A stretch of DNA of 37,279 nucleotides from a virus (Duplodnaviria > Heunggongvirae > Uroviricota > Caudoviricetes). Location of the stretch: IMG/VR virus record IMGVR_UViG_2718217859_000009; one strand, given 5' to 3'. Both the position numbers and the translations under genes were made by a program. Below, one piece after another: positions 7,701 to 36,135 of this stretch (positions within the stretch are counted from its first letter, which is position 1; each line of letters opens with the position of its first letter). Under the pieces are notes generated by a model. The model did not search any database, was not told where the DNA came from, and saw only the letters and a list, made by a program, of their open reading frames with translations.

Positions 7701-7821
7701 TTCGGGTATTCTGAATTGCGCCAGCCAGCTCTTTCGAACTGGCCTGTGCAGCACGGAATGGGCGGGTGAGTTTGTCAACCGCATTAAGAATGACCTGCAG
7801 GCGCAGGTTATTATCACTCAT
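4744..7821 (-). CDS. tail tape measure protein gpT
   Basis: 1025 aa, N-terminal coiled-coil-rich region and Ala/Gly/Leu-rich hydrophobic repeats, immediately downstream of E/E'. Confidence 0.9.
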   Translation of the reverse strand: MSDNNLRLQVILNAVDKLTRPFRAAQASSKELAGAIQNTRNSLKELNKQAGRIDEFRKTRSQLAITANNLNAAREEAAKLATQFAATNRPTAAQAKLFSQAKTRVQELQQTYNGLLGAVQRQRQALKESGIDTRQLSSAQRELKKNAEETRQALEGQQKALKRLGEQQARMNAAREQYSRRLEVRDRIAGAGATTTAAGLAMGAPVMAAVKSYTSMEDAMKGVAKQVNGLRDDNGNRTARFYEMQDAIKGASEQLPMENGAVDFAALVEGGARMNVANPDDSWEDQKRDLLAFASTAAKAATAFELPADELSESLGKIAQLYKIPTRNIEQLGDALNYLDDNAMSKGADIIDVMQRLGGVADRLDYRKAAALGSTFLTLGAAPEVAASAANAMVRELSIATMQSKSFFEGMNLLKLNPEVIEKQMTKDAMGTIQRVLEKVNALPQDKRLSAMTMLFGKEFGDDAAKLANNLPELQRQLKLTAGNDALGSMQKESDINKDSLSAQWLLVKTGAQNTFSSLGETLRQPLMDILYTVKSVTGALRRWVEANPELTGTLMKVAAVVAAVTVGLGTLAVALAAVLGPLAVIRLGFSVLGIKTLPSVTAAVTRTSSALSWLAGAPLALLRRGLASSGNAAGLLTAPLSSLRRTASLTGNVLKTVAGAPVALLRSGLSGLRAVAVMFMNPLAVLRGGLAAAGTVLRVLASGPLAMLRIALYAVSGLLGALLSPIGLVVTALAGVALVVWKYWQPITAFLGGVVEGFKAAAGPVSAAFEPLKPVFQWIGDKVQALWGWFTDLLTPVKSTSAELQSAAAMGRRFGEALAEGLNMVMHPLDSLKSGVSWLLEKLGIISKEAAKAKLPESVTRQQPATVNADGKVMMPSGGFPSWGYGFAGMYDSGGYIPRGQFGIVGENGPEIVNGPANVTSRRNTAALAAVVAGMMGVAAAPVELPPLHPLALPAKGGEAMVSRAAAVPPVQRIEAPTQIIIQTQPGQSAQDIAREVARQLDERERRLKAKARSNYSDQGGYDA

Positions 7822-8250
7822 CGTTGGCCCCGCTTCTCTGAATCGCTTTATACCGCCATTCCAGCACTTCGGTCAGCGGCATAACGTCAGTAACGGATGG
7901 CGGCCAGTGAAAGATGGTGGCGATATCAGCCACCAGATCGTCAACCGTCAGGCTGTCGGTAAACCGGCAAGCACCGACTTCTTCAACAAAAAAGTGACAA
8001 CCTCAACCGACATAGCGGTGAGATCTGCCGGGTCCATCTCTGCAATTTCCTGTGTAGTCAGTGCCGGGCTGGAGATGCGGGGGATCACGGTCATCATCGC
8101 GTTCACATCCATATCCATAATGGCCTGCAGGCGTGTACCGCGCAGTGCACCGGACTGCGGTTTACGCAGCACAATTTCGGTGATTTCAGTTTTACCACGC
8201 ATGATGGGGGTATCCAGTTGAATGGTCTTTTCAGTCTGCTTATCGCTCAT
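7814..8250 (-). CDS. gpE+E' tail chaperone fusion made by programmed -1 frameshift
   Basis: Minus-strand heptamer T-TTT-TTG (plus 7987..7993); the -1 frame then reads VEEVGACRFTDSLTVDDLVADIATIFHWPPSVTDVMPLTEVLEWRYKAIQRSGANDE and stops at a TGA overlapping the T start codon. Confidence 0.65.
7948..8250 (-). CDS. tail assembly chaperone gpE
   Basis: 100-aa ORF upstream of T, ending ...VTFLLKKSVLAGLPTA across a TTTTTTG slippery heptamer. Confidence 0.8.
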   Translation of the reverse strand: MSDKQTEKTIQLDTPIMRGKTEITEIVLRKPQSGALRGTRLQAIMDMDVNAMMTVIPRISSPALTTQEIAEMDPADLTAMSVEVVTFLLKKSVLAGLPTA

Positions 8251-8304: not shown

Positions 8305-8819
8305 TCAGAGGCCGAGGGCGTTGCGGTGCGCTTCCATCAGGTCCACACCGTCCACAATTTCCACCATGTTGATAAGGTCCACTTCATAGAGCACCTCACC
8401 ATTGATAGTCAGCTTCGCGTAGCTGTTGGTACTGGTCACTTTAGTGGTGTTGCTTTCGCCCGTCTTCCACTCGCCGGAATCCACTTCTTTGTGACGTCCA
8501 CGCACCACAAGCTCCACGGCCTGCACTTCCCCGGTATCATCACGCTGGATAGAGCCGGTAAAGCGCAACTGGATGCCATCCACCGTGGCTTTGCCCATCT
8601 GCTTAAACAGCAGCAGCTCAGTACCACCAATGGAAAATTCTGTGTCCAGAGCACTGTCATCAAGCCCCAGATCCACATCCACCGCCCCGGCATTCCGCCG
8701 CCGCGATACTTCTCATATTTGCGGGTGAATTTCGGCAGCGTCAGCGACTCAACGATCCCCTGCCAGTTGTTCCCGTCGTTAAACAGGTTCAGGTGTTTTA
8801 ATTTGCGTGGTAAAGCCAT
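8305..8819 (-). pseudogene. tail tube protein gpFII, split by a 1-nt frameshift
   Basis: N-terminal part MALPRKLKHLNLFNDG...YRGGGMPG is in one frame (ORF 8436..8819) and the rest (A)VDVDLGLDDSALDTEF...HRNALGL is in another (ORF 8305..8682); the join lies at a C4 run at plus 8684..8687; adding one nt restores about 171 codons. Confidence 0.75.
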
Positions 8820-10143: not shown

Positions 10144-10710
10144 TCAGGGGGATTCATTACTCTTATTTGCCGGAAATTTTCTATAAATTGTGGAAACACC
10201 CACATCAAAAATCAGTGCAATACGCTGTCTTGATTCTCCGGCCTCGAGTAAACGCCCAATCTGTGCCCACTGTTCGGTGGTCAACTTAGGACGGCGTCCA
10301 CCTACTCTGCCTTTGGCACGAGCTGCAGCCAGCCCTGCCCTGGTACGTTCAACTATCAGTTCGCGTTCCATTTCAGCCAGGGCACCCATGACATGAAAAA
10401 AGAAACGGCCCATTGGGGTACTGGTATCAATACTGTCAGTCAGGCTTCGGAAATTCACACCACGCTGGCGCAACTCCTCTATCAGCGTAACAAGATGCCG
10501 CATACTGCGCCCCAACCTGTCCAGCTTCCAGACAACCAGCGTGTCTCCTGCCGATAGTGTCCTGAGCAGCTTTTTCAGCCCCGGTCTGTCGGACTTAGTG
10601 CCACTGATTTTATCCTCAAAAATCCGCTCACATCCCGCGCAGTTCAGTGCATTACGTTGCAAATCGGTGTTCTGGTCATTTGTTGACACGCGTACATAGC
10701 CAATAAGCAT
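10144..10710 (-). CDS. serine DNA invertase (Gin/Pin/Cin/Hin family)
   Basis: MLIGYVRVSTNDQNTDLQRNAL...DRLGRSMRHL...C-terminal HTH; near-identical in pattern to Mu Gin; catalytic Ser in VRVSTNDQ. Confidence 0.92.
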   Translation of the reverse strand: MLIGYVRVSTNDQNTDLQRNALNCAGCERIFEDKISGTKSDRPGLKKLLRTLSAGDTLVVWKLDRLGRSMRHLVTLIEELRQRGVNFRSLTDSIDTSTPMGRFFFHVMGALAEMERELIVERTRAGLAAARAKGRVGGRRPKLTTEQWAQIGRLLEAGESRQRIALIFDVGVSTIYRKFPANKSNESP

Positions 10711-10765
10711 GATCATCCCCCTGAATAAAAACCGGAGATGATGCCAGTTAGCCGTTATCTCTGCA

Positions 10766-10791
10766 TTTTCATAAACGTTGGTTTGGGAGAA
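10766..10791. repeat. gix/hix-like recombination site (right boundary of invertible segment)
   Basis: ttttcataaacgttggtttgggagaa; its reverse complement shares the 14-mer TTCTCCCAAACCAA with the site at 12604. Confidence 0.7.
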
Positions 10792-11136
10792 GCGGCAAAA
10801 AGGGATGTTGGCACAGGTGCAAATCAGATCCCTGATATGAGTTCGTGGACAAAGGGAATCTCAACGGATGCAATCTGGATCAGGTTTCCAGACGGGACGA
10901 TTATCCAGATGGGGGCGGGTGGAGGTTCAAACACAGAGATTACCTTTCCCATACCGTTTCCAACACAGTGCATGATTTTTATAGCAATGCCACGTAGTTC
11001 AGCATCAACGGCTTTCATTGGCACTGTTCAGGAGGACTCATTACAGCGGTCCAGAACAGGGACACGAGTGCTGGGTTTTAGCGGCGTAACGCCAGTAACG
11101 ACAGCTGCTTTCGGCTATTTAGCGATCGGAAGATAA
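10766..11136 (+). CDS. silent alternative tail-fibre C-terminal cassette (Sv'/Hv'-like)
   Basis: Reading frame continues from the crossover motif GLGE into ...AAKRDVGTGANQIPDMSSW...GYLAIGR; would be fused to the constant part of H after inversion. Confidence 0.65.
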
Positions 11137-11139
11137 ATA

Positions 11140-11583
11140 ATGACTCAATATTACTACAGTGCGTCTGAAAACGCGTTTTTTCCCGCAGTGCTGGAAGAAC
11201 AATACAAAAAGGCTGGAACATTCCCGGATGATGCCAGGGAGATTGATGATGATGTGGCCGTTACTTTTATAGGGAATCCGCCTGATGGCAAAATTCGTAT
11301 TGCCGGGAGTGACGGGATGCCGAGGTGGGGAGATATTCCACCACCAACCCATGCAGAAATTATTGCTGAGGCTGAACGAGAAAAACAACGCCGTATTGAT
11401 GTCGCAAACGAATTCATGAATAACAAGCAGTGGCCCGGTAAAGCCGCTATTGGTCGTCTGAAAGGCGAGGAACTGGCGCAATATAATTTGTGGCTAGATT
11501 ATCTGGACGCACTGGAACTGGTTGATACCTCCAGTGCTCCAGATATTGAATGGCCTACGCCTCCGGCAGTTCAGGCCAGATGA
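11140..11583 (+). CDS. tail fibre assembly protein, alternative copy (Tfa'/U'-like)
   Basis: 147 aa; C-terminus ...LWLDYLDALELVDTSSAPDIEWPTPP matches the conserved Tfa C-terminal pattern also seen in the minus-strand copy. Confidence 0.75.
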   Translation: MTQYYYSASENAFFPAVLEEQYKKAGTFPDDAREIDDDVAVTFIGNPPDGKIRIAGSDGMPRWGDIPPPTHAEIIAEAEREKQRRIDVANEFMNNKQWPGKAAIGRLKGEELAQYNLWLDYLDALELVDTSSAPDIEWPTPPAVQAR

Positions 11584-12157
11584 CATCCGGCGCGGTGCTG
11601 GTATCTGTTGCCGTCACCGCGTCAATGTAATCCAGCGCAGCGTTAAGTCGGGCGGTTTCTGCCTGCGTCAGATTCCGTCCGGCCTGCAATTTCAGCTGAA
11701 TCAGACTAATGGAAGCCATTGCAGTATCAATCAGCGACTGGCGCTGTGCTTCTGCTGCATCTACTGCGGCGCTATGCTGTGCCCCGGTATCCGTCACCCA
11801 TTTCTCACCATCCCATTTATCATATGGCGTTAACGGGGCGATAGTGGTTGTATTTTCAGGGTAATCACCCGGAGCTGTGATTTCTTTCGATTCTCCTGTT
11901 TCGGTGCTATAGATGATTTCACCGCGATGGTCTGGCACATATTCCCATGAGTTAAAATCTGCAGAACGGCAGATTGCATAACCAGCTTTATGTGTAACTG
12001 GTGCATCTAAACAAGAACATGCCGGTATACCGACGCCAACCGCAAGATATTCAGTTGATGTGGAAATATATTCCCGCGTTTCACCATCATAATTATAAAC
12101 GGTTATGTCTCCCGCTTTTATGGCAATGAGTTCGTTATTTAATACGGCTTTATTCAT
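11555..12157 (-). CDS. tail fibre assembly protein (gpG/Tfa), expressed orientation
   Basis: 200 aa immediately downstream of H with ATGA overlap; C-terminus ...LDYIDAVTATDTSTAPDVIWPELPEA. Confidence 0.8.
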   Translation of the reverse strand: MNKAVLNNELIAIKAGDITVYNYDGETREYISTSTEYLAVGVGIPACSCLDAPVTHKAGYAICRSADFNSWEYVPDHRGEIIYSTETGESKEITAPGDYPENTTTIAPLTPYDKWDGEKWVTDTGAQHSAAVDAAEAQRQSLIDTAMASISLIQLKLQAGRNLTQAETARLNAALDYIDAVTATDTSTAPDVIWPELPEA

Positions 12158-13665
12158 CAGGCAGCCCTCACGATATAATTAAAGGCAATGTTACGAGGTC
12201 GGTTTTCGTTTGCAGTTGGAACAACTCTGGAAGCATCGAATGTTACTCGCCTTGCATAACCACCTTTAATTGAATCAGATGAAGCATCTCCGATGACGCT
12301 GGTTGTAAAAGCACCAGAATCAGAAGGATAGGAATTAAACCTGACATCCACTAATGCACCAATTATATTTCGAATGGCATCGCCCTGTGATGAAAGCAAG
12401 CTACGGTTAGTATCAATTCCTCTTCCGTCATCCCAGCCGCGAATAAACTCACCACGTAAATCAGGCAATTTATTTGTCGGGTAAACTTTTGCCAGTTCCG
12501 GGTATTCTTCAGCAGAAAAAGCCGCACCATTGCATTTCAGCCAGCCTGTTGGCGGAGTGGCTGAAGGCCACGGAACAGGGACACCAACAGGTAATGCAGA
12601 GCCTTCTCCCAAACCAAGGTATGCGAGAAGACCAGCTACATCCTTTCCACTCAAATTAGTCAGCGTATTGTCCAGCGGTTGTTTACCTGCCAGTGCATTA
12701 AGCATTGTCGTGGCAAAGTTCGGGTCATTCCCCAGCGCCGCAGCCAGTTCGTTCAGTGTATCCAGTGCAGCAGGTGCAGACCCCACCATTGCCGCAATTG
12801 CCGATTTCACAAAAGCCGTGGTGGCAATCTGTGTATTGTTAACTGACTGTGCGGCAGTGGGGGCTGTTGGCGTTCCGGTGAGTGCCGGACTTAACAGCGG
12901 CGCTTTCAGTGCCAGCGCATTGTTAATGGTGGTACTGAATTTCGGGTCATTATTAATGGCAGCGGCAATTTCTTTCAGCGTATCCAGTGTGGCTGGCGCA
13001 CCATTAATAAGGGCCATCAGTGCCGCCTGAACAAACGCGGTGGTCGCAATCTGCGTGGTGTTATTCCCCTCCGCTGGCGTTGGCGCTTTGGGTGTTCCGG
13101 TCAATGTCGGGCTTTCTTTGGGTGCATACTGTGAATGCGGGTCCGGTGCGGCAAGATGTTTTGCCATCTTATCATCCACGAACACCTTCAGCTCCAGTAC
13201 CTTGTCATCCACATACTTGCGGGTTGCCAGCACGACGGCAGGGTCGATTTTCAGGGTGATATTGTCCGTGCTGCTGGTAATCAGCACCATGCGCACGGTC
13301 TGGGTGCGCCCGCTGCCTTCAGCCAGTTGCGGCTTATAGCTTTCCGGGCAGTTGCCTACGGCAATCAATGCCCCGGACTCATCAAACAGACCCACTTCAC
13401 GTATCCACCAACCACCCTCATTTTCAGGGATCACCTGTTCAGCAATAATCTGGCTGCTGTTCTGCGGGTCGATATAGAGCATATTCAGCGCAGCCCGGCG
13501 TTTCTCATTTACCAGTGCCGTCTGCTTTGCGTCCGGCGTTGGCAATGTTCCGCCGCCATCGCCCACCGCCATATGGGTAATTTTTAGCGGCACACCGAGC
13601 GCGGCGGCGCTGGCAAGTTTCGCCGCGCCAATATCCGTCAGCAGGGTATAAAATTTTGTGCTCAT
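12157..13665 (-). CDS. tail fibre protein gpH (constant N-terminal part plus invertible C-terminal part)
   Basis: 502 aa, repeated collagen-like/T4 gp37-like motifs (NTTQIATTAFV twice), crossover site inside the coding sequence at the GLGE motif. Confidence 0.88.
   Translation of the reverse strand: MSTKFYTLLTDIGAAKLASAAALGVPLKITHMAVGDGGGTLPTPDAKQTALVNEKRRAALNMLYIDPQNSSQIIAEQVIPENEGGWWIREVGLFDESGALIAVGNCPESYKPQLAEGSGRTQTVRMVLITSSTDNITLKIDPAVVLATRKYVDDKVLELKVFVDDKMAKHLAAPDPHSQYAPKESPTLTGTPKAPTPAEGNNTTQIATTAFVQAALMALINGAPATLDTLKEIAAAINNDPKFSTTINNALALKAPLLSPALTGTPTAPTAAQSVNNTQIATTAFVKSAIAAMVGSAPAALDTLNELAAALGNDPNFATTMLNALAGKQPLDNTLTNLSGKDVAGLLAYLGLGEGSALPVGVPVPWPSATPPTGWLKCNGAAFSAEEYPELAKVYPTNKLPDLRGEFIRGWDDGRGIDTNRSLLSSQGDAIRNIIGALVDVRFNSYPSDSGAFTTSVIGDASSDSIKGGYARRVTFDASRVVPTANENRPRNIAFNYIVRAA
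12604..12629. repeat. gix/hix-like recombination site (left boundary, inside gene H)
   Basis: ttctcccaaaccaaggtatgcgagaa; inverted partner of 10766..10791. Confidence 0.7.
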
Positions 13666-19307: not shown

Positions 19308-19401
19308 GCTGCTTTCTCCTGAAATAGAGGGCGGTGGACGGGGTTTTGATGTGGCAGTGCCTTTCGCCACCCCGTGCCGCCCGTGCGCGGGGCACGTTCT
19401 G

Positions 19402-25653: not shown

Positions 25654-26655
25654 ATGGGTGGAGAGACTTCGGCTATACAACGAGTCGCGGGTAAGATTTC
25701 TGATGATATTTTCTCAGTGTTCAAATGGGATCGTGCCGCTAGAGCGGACATGAATTGGGATTGTTGCCAAGAGGCTCATTCCAAGAAAACACATCCAAGC
25801 GATGTTGTATTTTTCTACATAGATCCATATGAGGAGGAAATGGTCTATCTCAACACAGACCTCAAAAGCTATGCAGAAGGTACTATTGGGAAAAAAATAG
25901 TCGAGGGAGCTTTAACATCGCTTGCTTTAGCTACCGAATGTGCAAATGTCAGTGAAGAATGGCGATTGAAATATGTTCATGATGATTCTTTAGGTTATAA
26001 CGTAAGAGGGTTATTATTCTTATATAACCATGATAATTTATATGATAAAGACTTCTATGAGAATATTACAAAAAAATTAGATCACTCATCTATAAATTGC
26101 CCTCCAAACATCAAACTACATTTGCTTGACCCTTATAAAATATCAGATTTGATAAACATATCTTCTGACATAACTAAGTTAATTGGTTCAGGCAAACTTC
26201 CTCAACCTGATAAGTTCACATATTATTATCCAGATCTTTCCCTAACAAGAATAAAGCACCCTATTAATCAGACAACACCTGCAACAATTGAATTATTAAC
26301 ATCACCATACATTATAATAAAGCATGAGGCTTTCAGTTGGCTCAGGGATAAAAACCCTGAGGGATATGTTGTTTATTACAATCAACCGGGGGATTCAGTA
26401 GACGAATTCGTTTACTTCTTTGATATGTTATCAACTTATCAGATATTAACCGAAGGTAAACCAATCGTATTACGCCATTGTCACATTCACCCAAATGAAA
26501 ATGCCATTCATCATTTTGAAAGAGCGAAAAAGAAATACAGCACAGACTGGCTCTTAGGCGAGGATGAAAGACTTTTTCTTAAAATTGACTTCGACAAGAC
26601 AGACAAAATTGTTGTTGAATATAATCTTGAACAAATCGGCATGGAGCAACGATAA
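25654..26655 (+). CDS. hypothetical protein, gene 1 of AT-rich three-gene cargo operon (candidate defence system)
   Basis: 333 aa, AAGGAG ribosome-binding site, stop overlaps the start of gene 2 (TAATG); possible D...E-x-K nuclease-like motif (FFYIDPYEEEMVYLNTDLK), unverified. Confidence 0.7.
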   Translation: MGGETSAIQRVAGKISDDIFSVFKWDRAARADMNWDCCQEAHSKKTHPSDVVFFYIDPYEEEMVYLNTDLKSYAEGTIGKKIVEGALTSLALATECANVSEEWRLKYVHDDSLGYNVRGLLFLYNHDNLYDKDFYENITKKLDHSSINCPPNIKLHLLDPYKISDLINISSDITKLIGSGKLPQPDKFTYYYPDLSLTRIKHPINQTTPATIELLTSPYIIIKHEAFSWLRDKNPEGYVVYYNQPGDSVDEFVYFFDMLSTYQILTEGKPIVLRHCHIHPNENAIHHFERAKKKYSTDWLLGEDERLFLKIDFDKTDKIVVEYNLEQIGMEQR

Positions 26656-27734
26656 TGGCTAAAAAACTATATTTCGCAACTGATAAAAATATTTATGATG
26701 CATTACATCATAAAAGGATAACCGCTGCAAAGTTGCATGAATTATTGTTGAATCGAGGTGTGTTTTTATCACCAGAACTCGACAAGGAAATACTAATCGA
26801 GGAAATATCCAAACTTCCTCACGGATTTAATGAATTAGAACACATAAAAAAACTGGTCAAAACATATGACCCAAGGGAAAGCACTACTAGTGTGAGCTTC
26901 CAAACCTCAACAAATCAGGCCGAATTAAAAAGTGCTGCTGAAGCACTAAAAAAAACATGCTCCCCTAGTAAAGGTCAAAGCCTGAATATTGTAGCTAAAA
27001 AAGATGGCTCGCTTACAGTAGAATACAAATATGAAGAAATAGACCTGTCTAAAACTGCATTACGTCAGATCGACAAGCGGAATGTTATAATAGAACTTCG
27101 CCCTGGAGCTGACAAAGTTGAAGTACGTATGCCTCAAAACCCCGAGGCAAAAAAAGTTATTGAGAGCTTGCAAAACGAGCTATCTAAAATCAAGTCCGAA
27201 CCTATCGAGCGCTTCGAAATATCATTACTAGCAATAACTGATCCTACATTGCGAAGTCAGTTTTTTCAGGAATTAATGAATGGTCTACGCGGTTATGAGA
27301 CTGATGACGTAACAAAAGTCGAATTAAATCGCAGTACTGATGCTAGTGAGGATGAAGACAAGGAAGAAACTATTGATACCGGATTTGTTAAGAAAGCCGT
27401 CCTTAATGGTGAAGGGGTAAATAGTTCAGCTATATTTTCTCAACTACATGAGAAAGGTTATTATATCGGGCGTATTGCATGGTCTTCAAAGCCGACAAGT
27501 GGAATTGGAGACAGAATCAACGTCGAAGCATTTTTCAAAGACTCAGAAAAATGCTGTGACTTTGCCTATCAAATTAAAGGTATAAACAATCAAAAAGAAG
27601 ACGGTTTCAATGTAACCATTCGCGCGGCAACGGCACAAGAGAAAAAACATATTAGTGAATTAATTGAGTCCGCCGCTGAAAATGCCTATAATATAATAAT
27701 AGGATCAGAGGTGAACGAAGATGAAAAAGGTTAA
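26655..27734 (+). CDS. hypothetical protein, gene 2 of cargo operon
   Basis: 359 aa, Lys/Glu-rich, translationally coupled on both sides. Confidence 0.7.
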   Translation: MAKKLYFATDKNIYDALHHKRITAAKLHELLLNRGVFLSPELDKEILIEEISKLPHGFNELEHIKKLVKTYDPRESTTSVSFQTSTNQAELKSAAEALKKTCSPSKGQSLNIVAKKDGSLTVEYKYEEIDLSKTALRQIDKRNVIIELRPGADKVEVRMPQNPEAKKVIESLQNELSKIKSEPIERFEISLLAITDPTLRSQFFQELMNGLRGYETDDVTKVELNRSTDASEDEDKEETIDTGFVKKAVLNGEGVNSSAIFSQLHEKGYYIGRIAWSSKPTSGIGDRINVEAFFKDSEKCCDFAYQIKGINNQKEDGFNVTIRAATAQEKKHISELIESAAENAYNIIIGSEVNEDEKG

Positions 27735-28404
27735 ATGGCTTAAGTTAAACATACGGCTTGAGTTTGAAACAGCCGTTAGACGTCTTTCTCTTGATTCTTT
27801 TACAGAGGATAAAGGGAAAGGGTTCATTTTTGATAAAATACGCCATGATTTTGCAAATGGTCGCTTTGTCGAGCGTATTGTTTATCATGATAAAATATTA
27901 AGCTTTGACGGAAGCGAAACTACCGTTGAAAGAATCGAATATCGCACCACAAATTTTAGCGTGGCTTTAGACTCTCTTCCTGTAATGCAGATTACCAACC
28001 CACCCAGAACTTTAAAGCCTTTTTCGCAGGCTTTGGTAAAAAATCTTGGCTTAGGTGTTAGTTTGGAAGAAATTGACATAAACCCTATAGACTGGCTTAA
28101 TGAAATATCTTCAAGTGTAAATATCAATTTAACACAACTTGATATTTCAAGGGTTAGAGTTTCTGATTACGCCACAGCTAAAATGCAAATAATTGGCAGC
28201 AATGATCTTAGGAAGTATTATAAAGAAGAATTAGAGGGTAAAAAAATAAGAATTGACAGGCTTGTTTGCTCTGTTAATTCATTAGAATATTCCGGTAAGC
28301 TCAAGATCACCAATAGCGGCCTTGCTTATATTGATGTTAGAAATGAGAATGAGTTTACGAAAATCGTTTTTGATACGTTAAAAAAAGTCACCCTTCAATC
28401 ATAG
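27721..28404 (+). CDS. hypothetical protein, gene 3 of cargo operon
   Basis: 227 aa, start overlaps the end of gene 2 by 14 nt. Confidence 0.65.
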   Translation: MKKVKWLKLNIRLEFETAVRRLSLDSFTEDKGKGFIFDKIRHDFANGRFVERIVYHDKILSFDGSETTVERIEYRTTNFSVALDSLPVMQITNPPRTLKPFSQALVKNLGLGVSLEEIDINPIDWLNEISSSVNINLTQLDISRVRVSDYATAKMQIIGSNDLRKYYKEELEGKKIRIDRLVCSVNSLEYSGKLKITNSGLAYIDVRNENEFTKIVFDTLKKVTLQS

Positions 28405-34243: not shown

Positions 34244-35179
34244 ATGTCAACACATGAAATCACATTTCGCCATGTGGACGAAAAAAAGAAATCCTTAATC
34301 ATGCAGAATCGCGGAGGGCAATCGGTTATAGATCGGATACTGAAAGCCTATGGTTTTTCTTCCCGACAAGCATTCTGTAATCACCTAGGTATATCGCAAA
34401 GTACAATGGCGAACAGGTATGCCCGTGACACTTTCCCTGCTGATTGGGTTGTTATCTGTAGCATGGAGACTGGAGTGCCGGTCGAGTGGTTGGCATTTGG
34501 CACTGATACCGAGAAGGGAAGCATTACAAATAATGCAGAAAAAAGTCACAACAATTGTGACAGCAAGCATCAACATCTCAATAGAGAACAAGACATCCAA
34601 AATGAGAACTCTTTTACTATTAACCAAGGTGGAAAAGCAGCAATAGAGCGAATCGTTTTGGCTTATGGATTTAAGACAAGACAAGCTTTAGCTGATCATA
34701 TTGGTGTATCAAAAAGTACATTAGCCAATCGTTACATGAGAGATACCTTTCCTGCTGACTGGATTATTCAATGCTCACTGGAAACCGGTGCTTCATTAAC
34801 ATGGCTAACCACTGGTAACGGGGCAATGTTTGAAAAGCCTCGAAACGATACTATCACTATCCCATATCATAAAATAATTGATGGATCTCTTGCTCAAGAA
34901 ACCTTCTTGACTTTTGACTCTAAGTTGTTAGAAGGAACCTTTCTGCAACCTTTAGCAGTATTCATTGATGAGGAAATATATATTGTAGAATCAAAATTTA
35001 ATGAAGTTACTGATGGCAAGTGGCTTGTGAATATTGAAGGGAAAATAAGTATCAAAGATTTGACTCGCATACCCGTTGGTATGGTTAAAGTTGTAGGCAC
35101 TAACGCAAGTTTTGAATGCTTACTTACTGACATTATCGTTTTGGCAAAATGTAAAAGAGTTTTTACTAAAAATGTATAA
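34244..35179 (+). CDS. putative immunity repressor with tandemly duplicated CI-like DNA-binding domain
   Basis: Two copies of ...R(L/V)(L/V)xAYGF(S/K)(S/T)RQA(F/L)...IS(Q/K)ST(M/L)ANRYxRDTFPADW(V/I)(V/I)xCS(M/L)ETG..., then a distinct C-terminal domain; AT-rich. Confidence 0.65.
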   Translation: MSTHEITFRHVDEKKKSLIMQNRGGQSVIDRILKAYGFSSRQAFCNHLGISQSTMANRYARDTFPADWVVICSMETGVPVEWLAFGTDTEKGSITNNAEKSHNNCDSKHQHLNREQDIQNENSFTINQGGKAAIERIVLAYGFKTRQALADHIGVSKSTLANRYMRDTFPADWIIQCSLETGASLTWLTTGNGAMFEKPRNDTITIPYHKIIDGSLAQETFLTFDSKLLEGTFLQPLAVFIDEEIYIVESKFNEVTDGKWLVNIEGKISIKDLTRIPVGMVKVVGTNASFECLLTDIIVLAKCKRVFTKNV

Positions 35180-35190
35180 AGAGAAACATC

Positions 35191-36135
35191 ATGACTGAAC
35201 CAACCAATAAAGATAGCGAAATAAAAAAACACCTATTAGAATTTCTTGATTCACAGTCTGAAAATATAGCAAAACACTTCTACTCTCATATAAAAGACTT
35301 AATAGAAGCAGGAGAGCTTTCTGAAGCTCATAATAACCTAGCGCTAATTGAAAAATACATAACTAGGCCACCGATGGATGAAGAACCCAATATAAATGAA
35401 AATAAAGCCAATAAAAGAAAAAATGTAAAATCACTTGAACCTAATAATTATGTAGAACATATAATACAATTAGAAGAACGAAACAGCATATTAACTCTAC
35501 AGTTAGAGCATTATACTCAGGATCTTAATAGAAAAAACGCAATAATCGAAAACAACGTAAAACAAATTAATTCATTGATTAGTGAAAATAAGGAACTCCG
35601 TAGCCAAGTACAGCAACAAAGAATCGATGATAAAATCCCCACCTATGTTAACGATGTTAAATCAGATCTTGGTAGTGATGACAAACATTTTATATTGATG
35701 TCTATTATCTGGTCTATTGCAGGGGTATTTTTTGGCTTCCTTGCAGTAGTATCTGCTTTTTTTACATTATACATGAACTTAGATTTAAAAAATCTCACTA
35801 ACCTTCAGTTAATATATATCTTCACGCGAGGATTAGTTGGAATCGCCATTCTTTCATGGCTATCATATATCTGCCTTAGTAACTCAAAAAAGTACACACA
35901 TGAATCGATCAGGCGAAAAGATCGTCGACATGCTTTGATGTTTGGTCAAGTTTTTTTGCAGATATACGGTTCTACAGCAACTAAAGAGGATGCAATAGAA
36001 GTCTTTAAGGATTGGAATATTTCAGGTGACTCTGCATTTTCAGGTCAGACAGAGCAACCACCGAGTTTTGCGTCATTTTTGAATACAATCAAAGACAAAG
36101 TTAAAGTAACTGGAAGTGATAAAGAAACAGATTAA
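35191..36135 (+). CDS. coiled-coil membrane protein (moron between repressor and integrase)
   Basis: 314 aa; N-terminal coiled-coil region (LQLEHYTQDLNRKNAIIENNVKQINSLISENKELRSQVQQQ) then two hydrophobic helices; very AT-rich. Confidence 0.65.
   Translation: MTEPTNKDSEIKKHLLEFLDSQSENIAKHFYSHIKDLIEAGELSEAHNNLALIEKYITRPPMDEEPNINENKANKRKNVKSLEPNNYVEHIIQLEERNSILTLQLEHYTQDLNRKNAIIENNVKQINSLISENKELRSQVQQQRIDDKIPTYVNDVKSDLGSDDKHFILMSIIWSIAGVFFGFLAVVSAFFTLYMNLDLKNLTNLQLIYIFTRGLVGIAILSWLSYICLSNSKKYTHESIRRKDRRHALMFGQVFLQIYGSTATKEDAIEVFKDWNISGDSAFSGQTEQPPSFASFLNTIKDKVKVTGSDKETD

Follow-up and report, generated by a model that had tools for sequence, protein, structure and literature searches.

The major tail tube gene FII of a P2/186-like prophage of E. 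coli is broken into two reading frames by the shortening of a run of five guanines to four, and this contraction is private to the sequence analysed here among otherwise identical genomes. The comparison of the available sequences makes a homopolymer consensus error, introduced in sequencing or assembly, the probable origin of the four-base run, and we hold this reading with good confidence. The assembly would have undercalled the G5 run as G4, so that the frameshift of FII would be only apparent, and the organism probably has an intact FII ORF of 171 aa, as does every sister prophage copy. The split is real as text but most probably absent from the organism.

Table 1. The tail tube gene, its two reading frames and other features of the window.
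Feature	Coordinates	Strand	Remarks
FII, major tail tube gene	8305..8819	-	two frames in the window; single 516-nt ORF (171 aa) in relatives
Upstream FII ORF, 127 aa	8436..8819	-	45 native FII residues, then 82 out-of-frame residues
Downstream FII ORF, 125 aa, GTG start	8305..8682	-	corresponds approximately to FII residues 47-171
G4 run on the coding strand (C4 on the + strand)	8685..8688	-	contracted by one base here; all close relatives have G5
Tail chaperones E (7948-8250) and E' (7814-7933)	7814..8250	-	neighbours of FII; canonical P2 layout
Hin/Gin-type invertase	10144-10716	-	Pfam Resolvase + HTH_7
Second private G5-to-G4 contraction	19389..19392	.	gpM-gpL intergenic region; G5 in clone-mates

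The window (the whole stretch of 37,279 nucleotides that was analysed) consists of a segment of the E. coli chromosome followed by a complete P2/186-like prophage. The proteins encoded by grxA, ybjM and ybjL are 100% identical to those of an ETEC strain. The genes of the prophage come in the order ogr, D, U, T, E'/E, FII, FI, then an invertase of the Hin/Gin type with an invertible tail-fibre segment, followed by H, I, J, W, V, S, R, the lysis genes, X, L, M, N, O, P and Q, and by a three-gene cargo, DinI, A, dam, the 186-type early genes, CI, an ORF of 314 aa and the integrase. When the 34 annotated proteins of a relative, from grxA to gpQ, are compared with the window by tblastn, 33 of them give one full-length HSP each. 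The sole exception is FII, which is split into two HSPs (frames -3 and -2). A general decay of the prophage was considered and rejected, since the lengths of the ORFs elsewhere in the prophage agree with those of relatives and the invertible segment is found in both orientations among clone-mates.

Remnants of the prophage left by deletions are present at the same ybjL site in several E. coli genomes (L035, L043, L064-L066 and L069). In these remnants, for example, a portal fragment is fused to FII, the sheath gene is fused to FII, or ogr lies beside terminase or portal genes. This indicates that real decay in this prophage family proceeds mainly through large deletions.

The two parts of FII are complementary. 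The 127-aa ORF opens with MALPRKLKHLNLFNDGNNWQGIVESLTLPKFTRKYEKYRGGGMPG and then continues out of frame as RWMWIWGLM..., and the 125-aa ORF reads (M)DVDLGLDD...HRNALGL; the junction between the frames on the coding strand is ...AUG CCG GGG CGG UGG.... The initial annotation had placed the N-terminus of FII (MALPRKLK...YRGGGMPG) and the remainder of the protein in different frames, which is borne out by the ORFs and by the way they match the Pfam family Phage_tube (PF04985). Indeed, the 127-aa ORF matches positions 1-44 of the profile (49.8 bits) and the 125-aa ORF matches positions 45-165 (134.8 bits). The two halves abut exactly in the profile, so this is not a chance arrangement. The 171-aa protein of the relatives covers positions 1-165 with a score of 201.7 bits (E = 8.8e-60), which is above the gathering score. 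The frames do meet at a homopolymer, as had been proposed, but the run was first located at 8684..8687, one base away from its actual place. That one added G would give a tube protein of 171 aa is confirmed by the relatives, which have G5 and that very ORF. FII sits between the sheath gene FI and the chaperones E/E' of the FETUD operon, which is where the family has its tube gene, according to the tblastn map and to the annotations of the relatives. Members of the family also have one uninterrupted tube ORF of ~170 aa, and this the window lacks.

The run of five is the rule in the relatives of the prophage. In a 651-nt segment centred on FII, CCGGGGGCG in the 11 nearest E. coli complete genomes is replaced by CCGGGGCG in the window, and this is the sole difference; NZ_CP021288.1 is an example among the aligned relatives. 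The tract was searched in E. coli complete genomes, phage records, IMG/VR, metagenomes and GTDB representatives. Of the ~760 records from 5,426 E. coli complete genomes that match a 61-nt probe with G4, none does so exactly over the full length. With a pattern that allowed either G4 or G5, all the matching contigs have G5, both in IMG/VR (20/20) and in the metagenomes (10/10), and the exact 31/32-mer of the tract has no match among GTDB representatives. In these collections, G4 was not found beyond a handful of singleton assemblies, each copy being on a haplotype of its own. The same picture is obtained with proteins. The 171-aa protein clusters with sequences from E. coli, Salmonella and Klebsiella (2,537 in the cluster), and in the protein collection the intact form is present on at least 1000 contigs, compared to 20 for the 125-aa fragment; no record of that collection holds the exact 127-aa product, and a contig identical to the window was not found either. 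The initial annotation had also considered that orthologues might share the two-frame layout as a conserved feature. No such conservation was found, and the single ORF with G5 is essentially universal.

The most informative comparison is with clone-mates, which were located by an exact look-up of the 1025-aa tape measure protein and the 502-aa tail fibre protein H of the window. The same prophage occupies the same chromosomal site in five draft assemblies, and all those that cover the FII tract have G5. Among RefSeq complete genomes no clone-mate was found, the best match being 98.6%. Along 21,509 nt, the assembly L074 (GCA_029205605.1) matches positions 2158-23664 of the window without a single substitution; there are only two differences, the FII tract and the intergenic tract listed last in Table 1, at each of which the window is one base short of a G:C five-run. 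In the assembly L061 (GCA_032899025.1), the FII G is all that separates 10,792 + 1,824 nt from the window, and in L060 and L062 1-2 SNPs come on top of that G. At the intergenic tract, G5 is found in the clone-mates L074, L075 and L070, and also in the more distant L067, L068 and L071-L073. Among 983 E. coli complete-genome records, just 6 have G4 at that position; these are of unrelated haplotypes and include no clone-mate. When the window is compared with the clone-mates, 2 of the 27 G/C runs of at least five bases are contracted and the 25 others are unchanged, and the ~146 A/T runs of at least five bases all agree.

Clone-mates are base-for-base identical to the window except for G5 at two tracts, without substitutions, and this is what favours an artefact. 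Two deletions in G:C runs and no substitution make a spectrum of differences which resembles what long-read or flow-based sequencing leaves behind as consensus errors, and we infer that it stems from base calling or polishing, not from mutation. PMC8812927 names homopolymer length as the most frequent kind of error left in long-read bacterial assemblies, and PMC12007338 describes how such errors fragment or pseudogenise genes. Like these errors, the contractions of the window are private, lie in G:C runs, come without accompanying substitutions, and one of them fragments a gene. They affect only 2 of the 27 G/C runs, however, and none of the A/T runs. The same FII contraction is also found on other haplotypes in assemblies that are rich in indels relative to the window and whose neighbouring genes are fragmented (L037, L038 and L040). 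It is also found in L041, where three G/C five-runs are contracted within 4.8 kb, and the FII tract is garbled in the NCTC assembly L036.

Several observations count against an artefact. The window is clean apart from the two sites, so its assembly was not grossly unpolished; a generally error-ridden assembly was rejected, as 33 other genes are intact and the A/T runs agree with those of the clone-mates. One-base deletions in a G5 run are common spontaneous mutations, and the host can do without prophage genes. In addition, L034 and L039 have G4 in FII on other haplotypes, in clean neighbourhoods, which could point to a true hot spot of mutation and not to a systematic artefact.

These observations lend some weight to a very recent deletion by replication slippage, which would have inactivated FII in the source isolate. 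We consider this unlikely, although it is the foremost alternative to a consensus error. The frameshift is present in the sequence, the truncation past residue 45 loses positions 45-165 of Phage_tube, the contraction in the otherwise clean L034 and L039 suggests that the tract may be mutable, and deleted or remnant forms of the prophage exist elsewhere (for example L035 and L043). Since FII of P2 is essential for tail assembly, induction would then lead to filled heads and lysis but to neither tube nor sheath, and no infective particles would be formed; the loss of FII would be an early step in the domestication of the prophage. On the other hand, the contraction is private with respect to at least five otherwise identical clone-mate assemblies, no other gene shows decay, and a real event in FII needs a second, independent deletion in an intergenic G:C run, with no substitution over 21.5 kb. 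In mutation accumulation experiments with E. coli, substitutions are about tenfold more frequent than indels, in wild-type and mismatch-repair-deficient lines alike. Two indels and no substitutions are therefore improbable (of the order of 0.01 or less). A broader version of the same idea is that FII has a recurrent, real hot spot of mutation at its G5 run (codons 45-47), which repeatedly turns off the tails of P2/186-like prophages, and that a trace of tube protein might still be made by -1 slippage on G_GGG before CGG; we regard this as very improbable.

It is even harder to believe that the G4 allele is functional or regulated, either through -1 slippage of tRNA-Gly on G_GGG, through transcriptional slippage, or as a phase-variable switch of the tail. 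Inspection of the sequence shows that a P-site tRNA slipping back by one base, from GGG onto the GGG that overlaps it, would re-pair perfectly and would then give the native frame GCG GTG GAT. The next codon in the zero frame, CGG, is rare in E. coli, which favours slippage, and G4 recurs on several haplotypes. A review of frameshifting (PMC5009743) also notes the translational "correction" of indels. However, the orthologues that were found do not conserve the two-frame layout. The X_XXY_YYZ heptamer is absent at the FII tract, whose zero frame AUG CCG GGG CGG allows only a single-tRNA slip on G_GGG. The 75 nt downstream of the tract (8610-8684, - strand) fold with -23.1 kcal/mol (z = -1.27), a value that 23 of 200 shuffled sequences equal or better, so there is no significant structure; a frameshift-stimulating RNA structure was rejected on the ground that the fold does not rise above the shuffled background. 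Known tracts of slippage or phase variation are far longer than 4-5 bases. Phase-variable loci have a long tract, both lengths of which are common in close relatives, whereas the run in FII is of five bases and G4 is absent in the clone-mates. Moreover, the tube protein is needed in hundreds of copies per virion, an amount which low-level slippage could not supply, so that a trace of product would be obtained at best. Of the three explanations that the initial annotation left standing, the sequencing error is thus the favoured one, a tail-defective prophage is less likely, and a tract that slips by design is not upheld.

The main value of the result is a quality flag on FII. If G4 is an error, as we favour, the window holds a complete and probably inducible P2/186-like phage, with an active tail-fibre inversion switch and a cargo of defence genes, and to call FII a pseudogene would be to count this phage among the defective ones by mistake. 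A real G4 would be an ordinary inactivation, in a single step, of a structural gene of a prophage in one isolate, and the prophage would be tail-less and non-infective. Neither outcome alters what is known about tail tube genes or frameshifting.

The tail-fibre region of the prophage (10144-12629) is invertible. Bases 10794-12617 (1.8 kb) are 100% identical in the clone-mate L061, yet inverted, and inverted repeats flank the invertible segment on either side (10766-10792 and 12603-12629). The flipped segment in L061 indicates that the adjacent invertase is active in the clone. Alternative C-termini of the fibre and assembly proteins are encoded on both strands of the region.

The cargo (25654-28404), which separates the portal gene from DinI/gpA, consists of three genes, encoding proteins of 333, 359 and 227 aa. 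These proteins match the PADLOC models Hp1/Hp2/Hp3 over their full length, and in relatives the counterparts of the genes for the 333- and 359-aa proteins bear the tags PDDEXK_GAPS4 and GAPS4b_N. In several relatives (L056, L069 and L070), IS1 has interrupted the first of the three genes. Further on (34244-36135), the prophage encodes a 186-type CI repressor of 311 aa with two Phage_CI_repr HTH stretches, compared to 189-198 aa in other relatives. The 311-aa CI protein is very common (it is indexed in 2993 blocks). The 314-aa ORF that follows CI has no match in Pfam or PADLOC, and a 314-aa gene is present after CI in 6 of the 6 relatives shown.

The tube gene can be compared to that of known systems. 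The order FI (sheath), FII, E/E', T, U, D and ogr is shared by the prophage of the window and P2. The relatives that were examined have one ORF of 171 aa each, whereas the ORF of the window is broken after codon 45. Residues 1-168 of the tubes of R-type pyocins (FIIR2, PDB 3j9q/5w5e; PA0623, PDB 6pyt/6u5b) align with residues 1-171 of the restored protein (E = 1.8e-29), a likeness which is one of sequence homology only. These tubes are parts of bacteriocins and not of phages. This end-to-end alignment indicates that both halves of FII belong to one fold.

P2 does use a programmed -1 frameshift close to FII, at the sequence T_TTT_TTG, to produce E and E+E' (PMC3091744). The E/E' site is a tandem-slippery heptamer which is conserved across P2-like phages, unlike the FII tract, which has no heptamer and whose two-frame layout is not conserved. 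In the window, the T_TTT_TTG heptamer is intact in gene E, near 7988-7994, ~700 nt downstream of the FII tract, and it is this site that is the real programmed frameshift of the operon.
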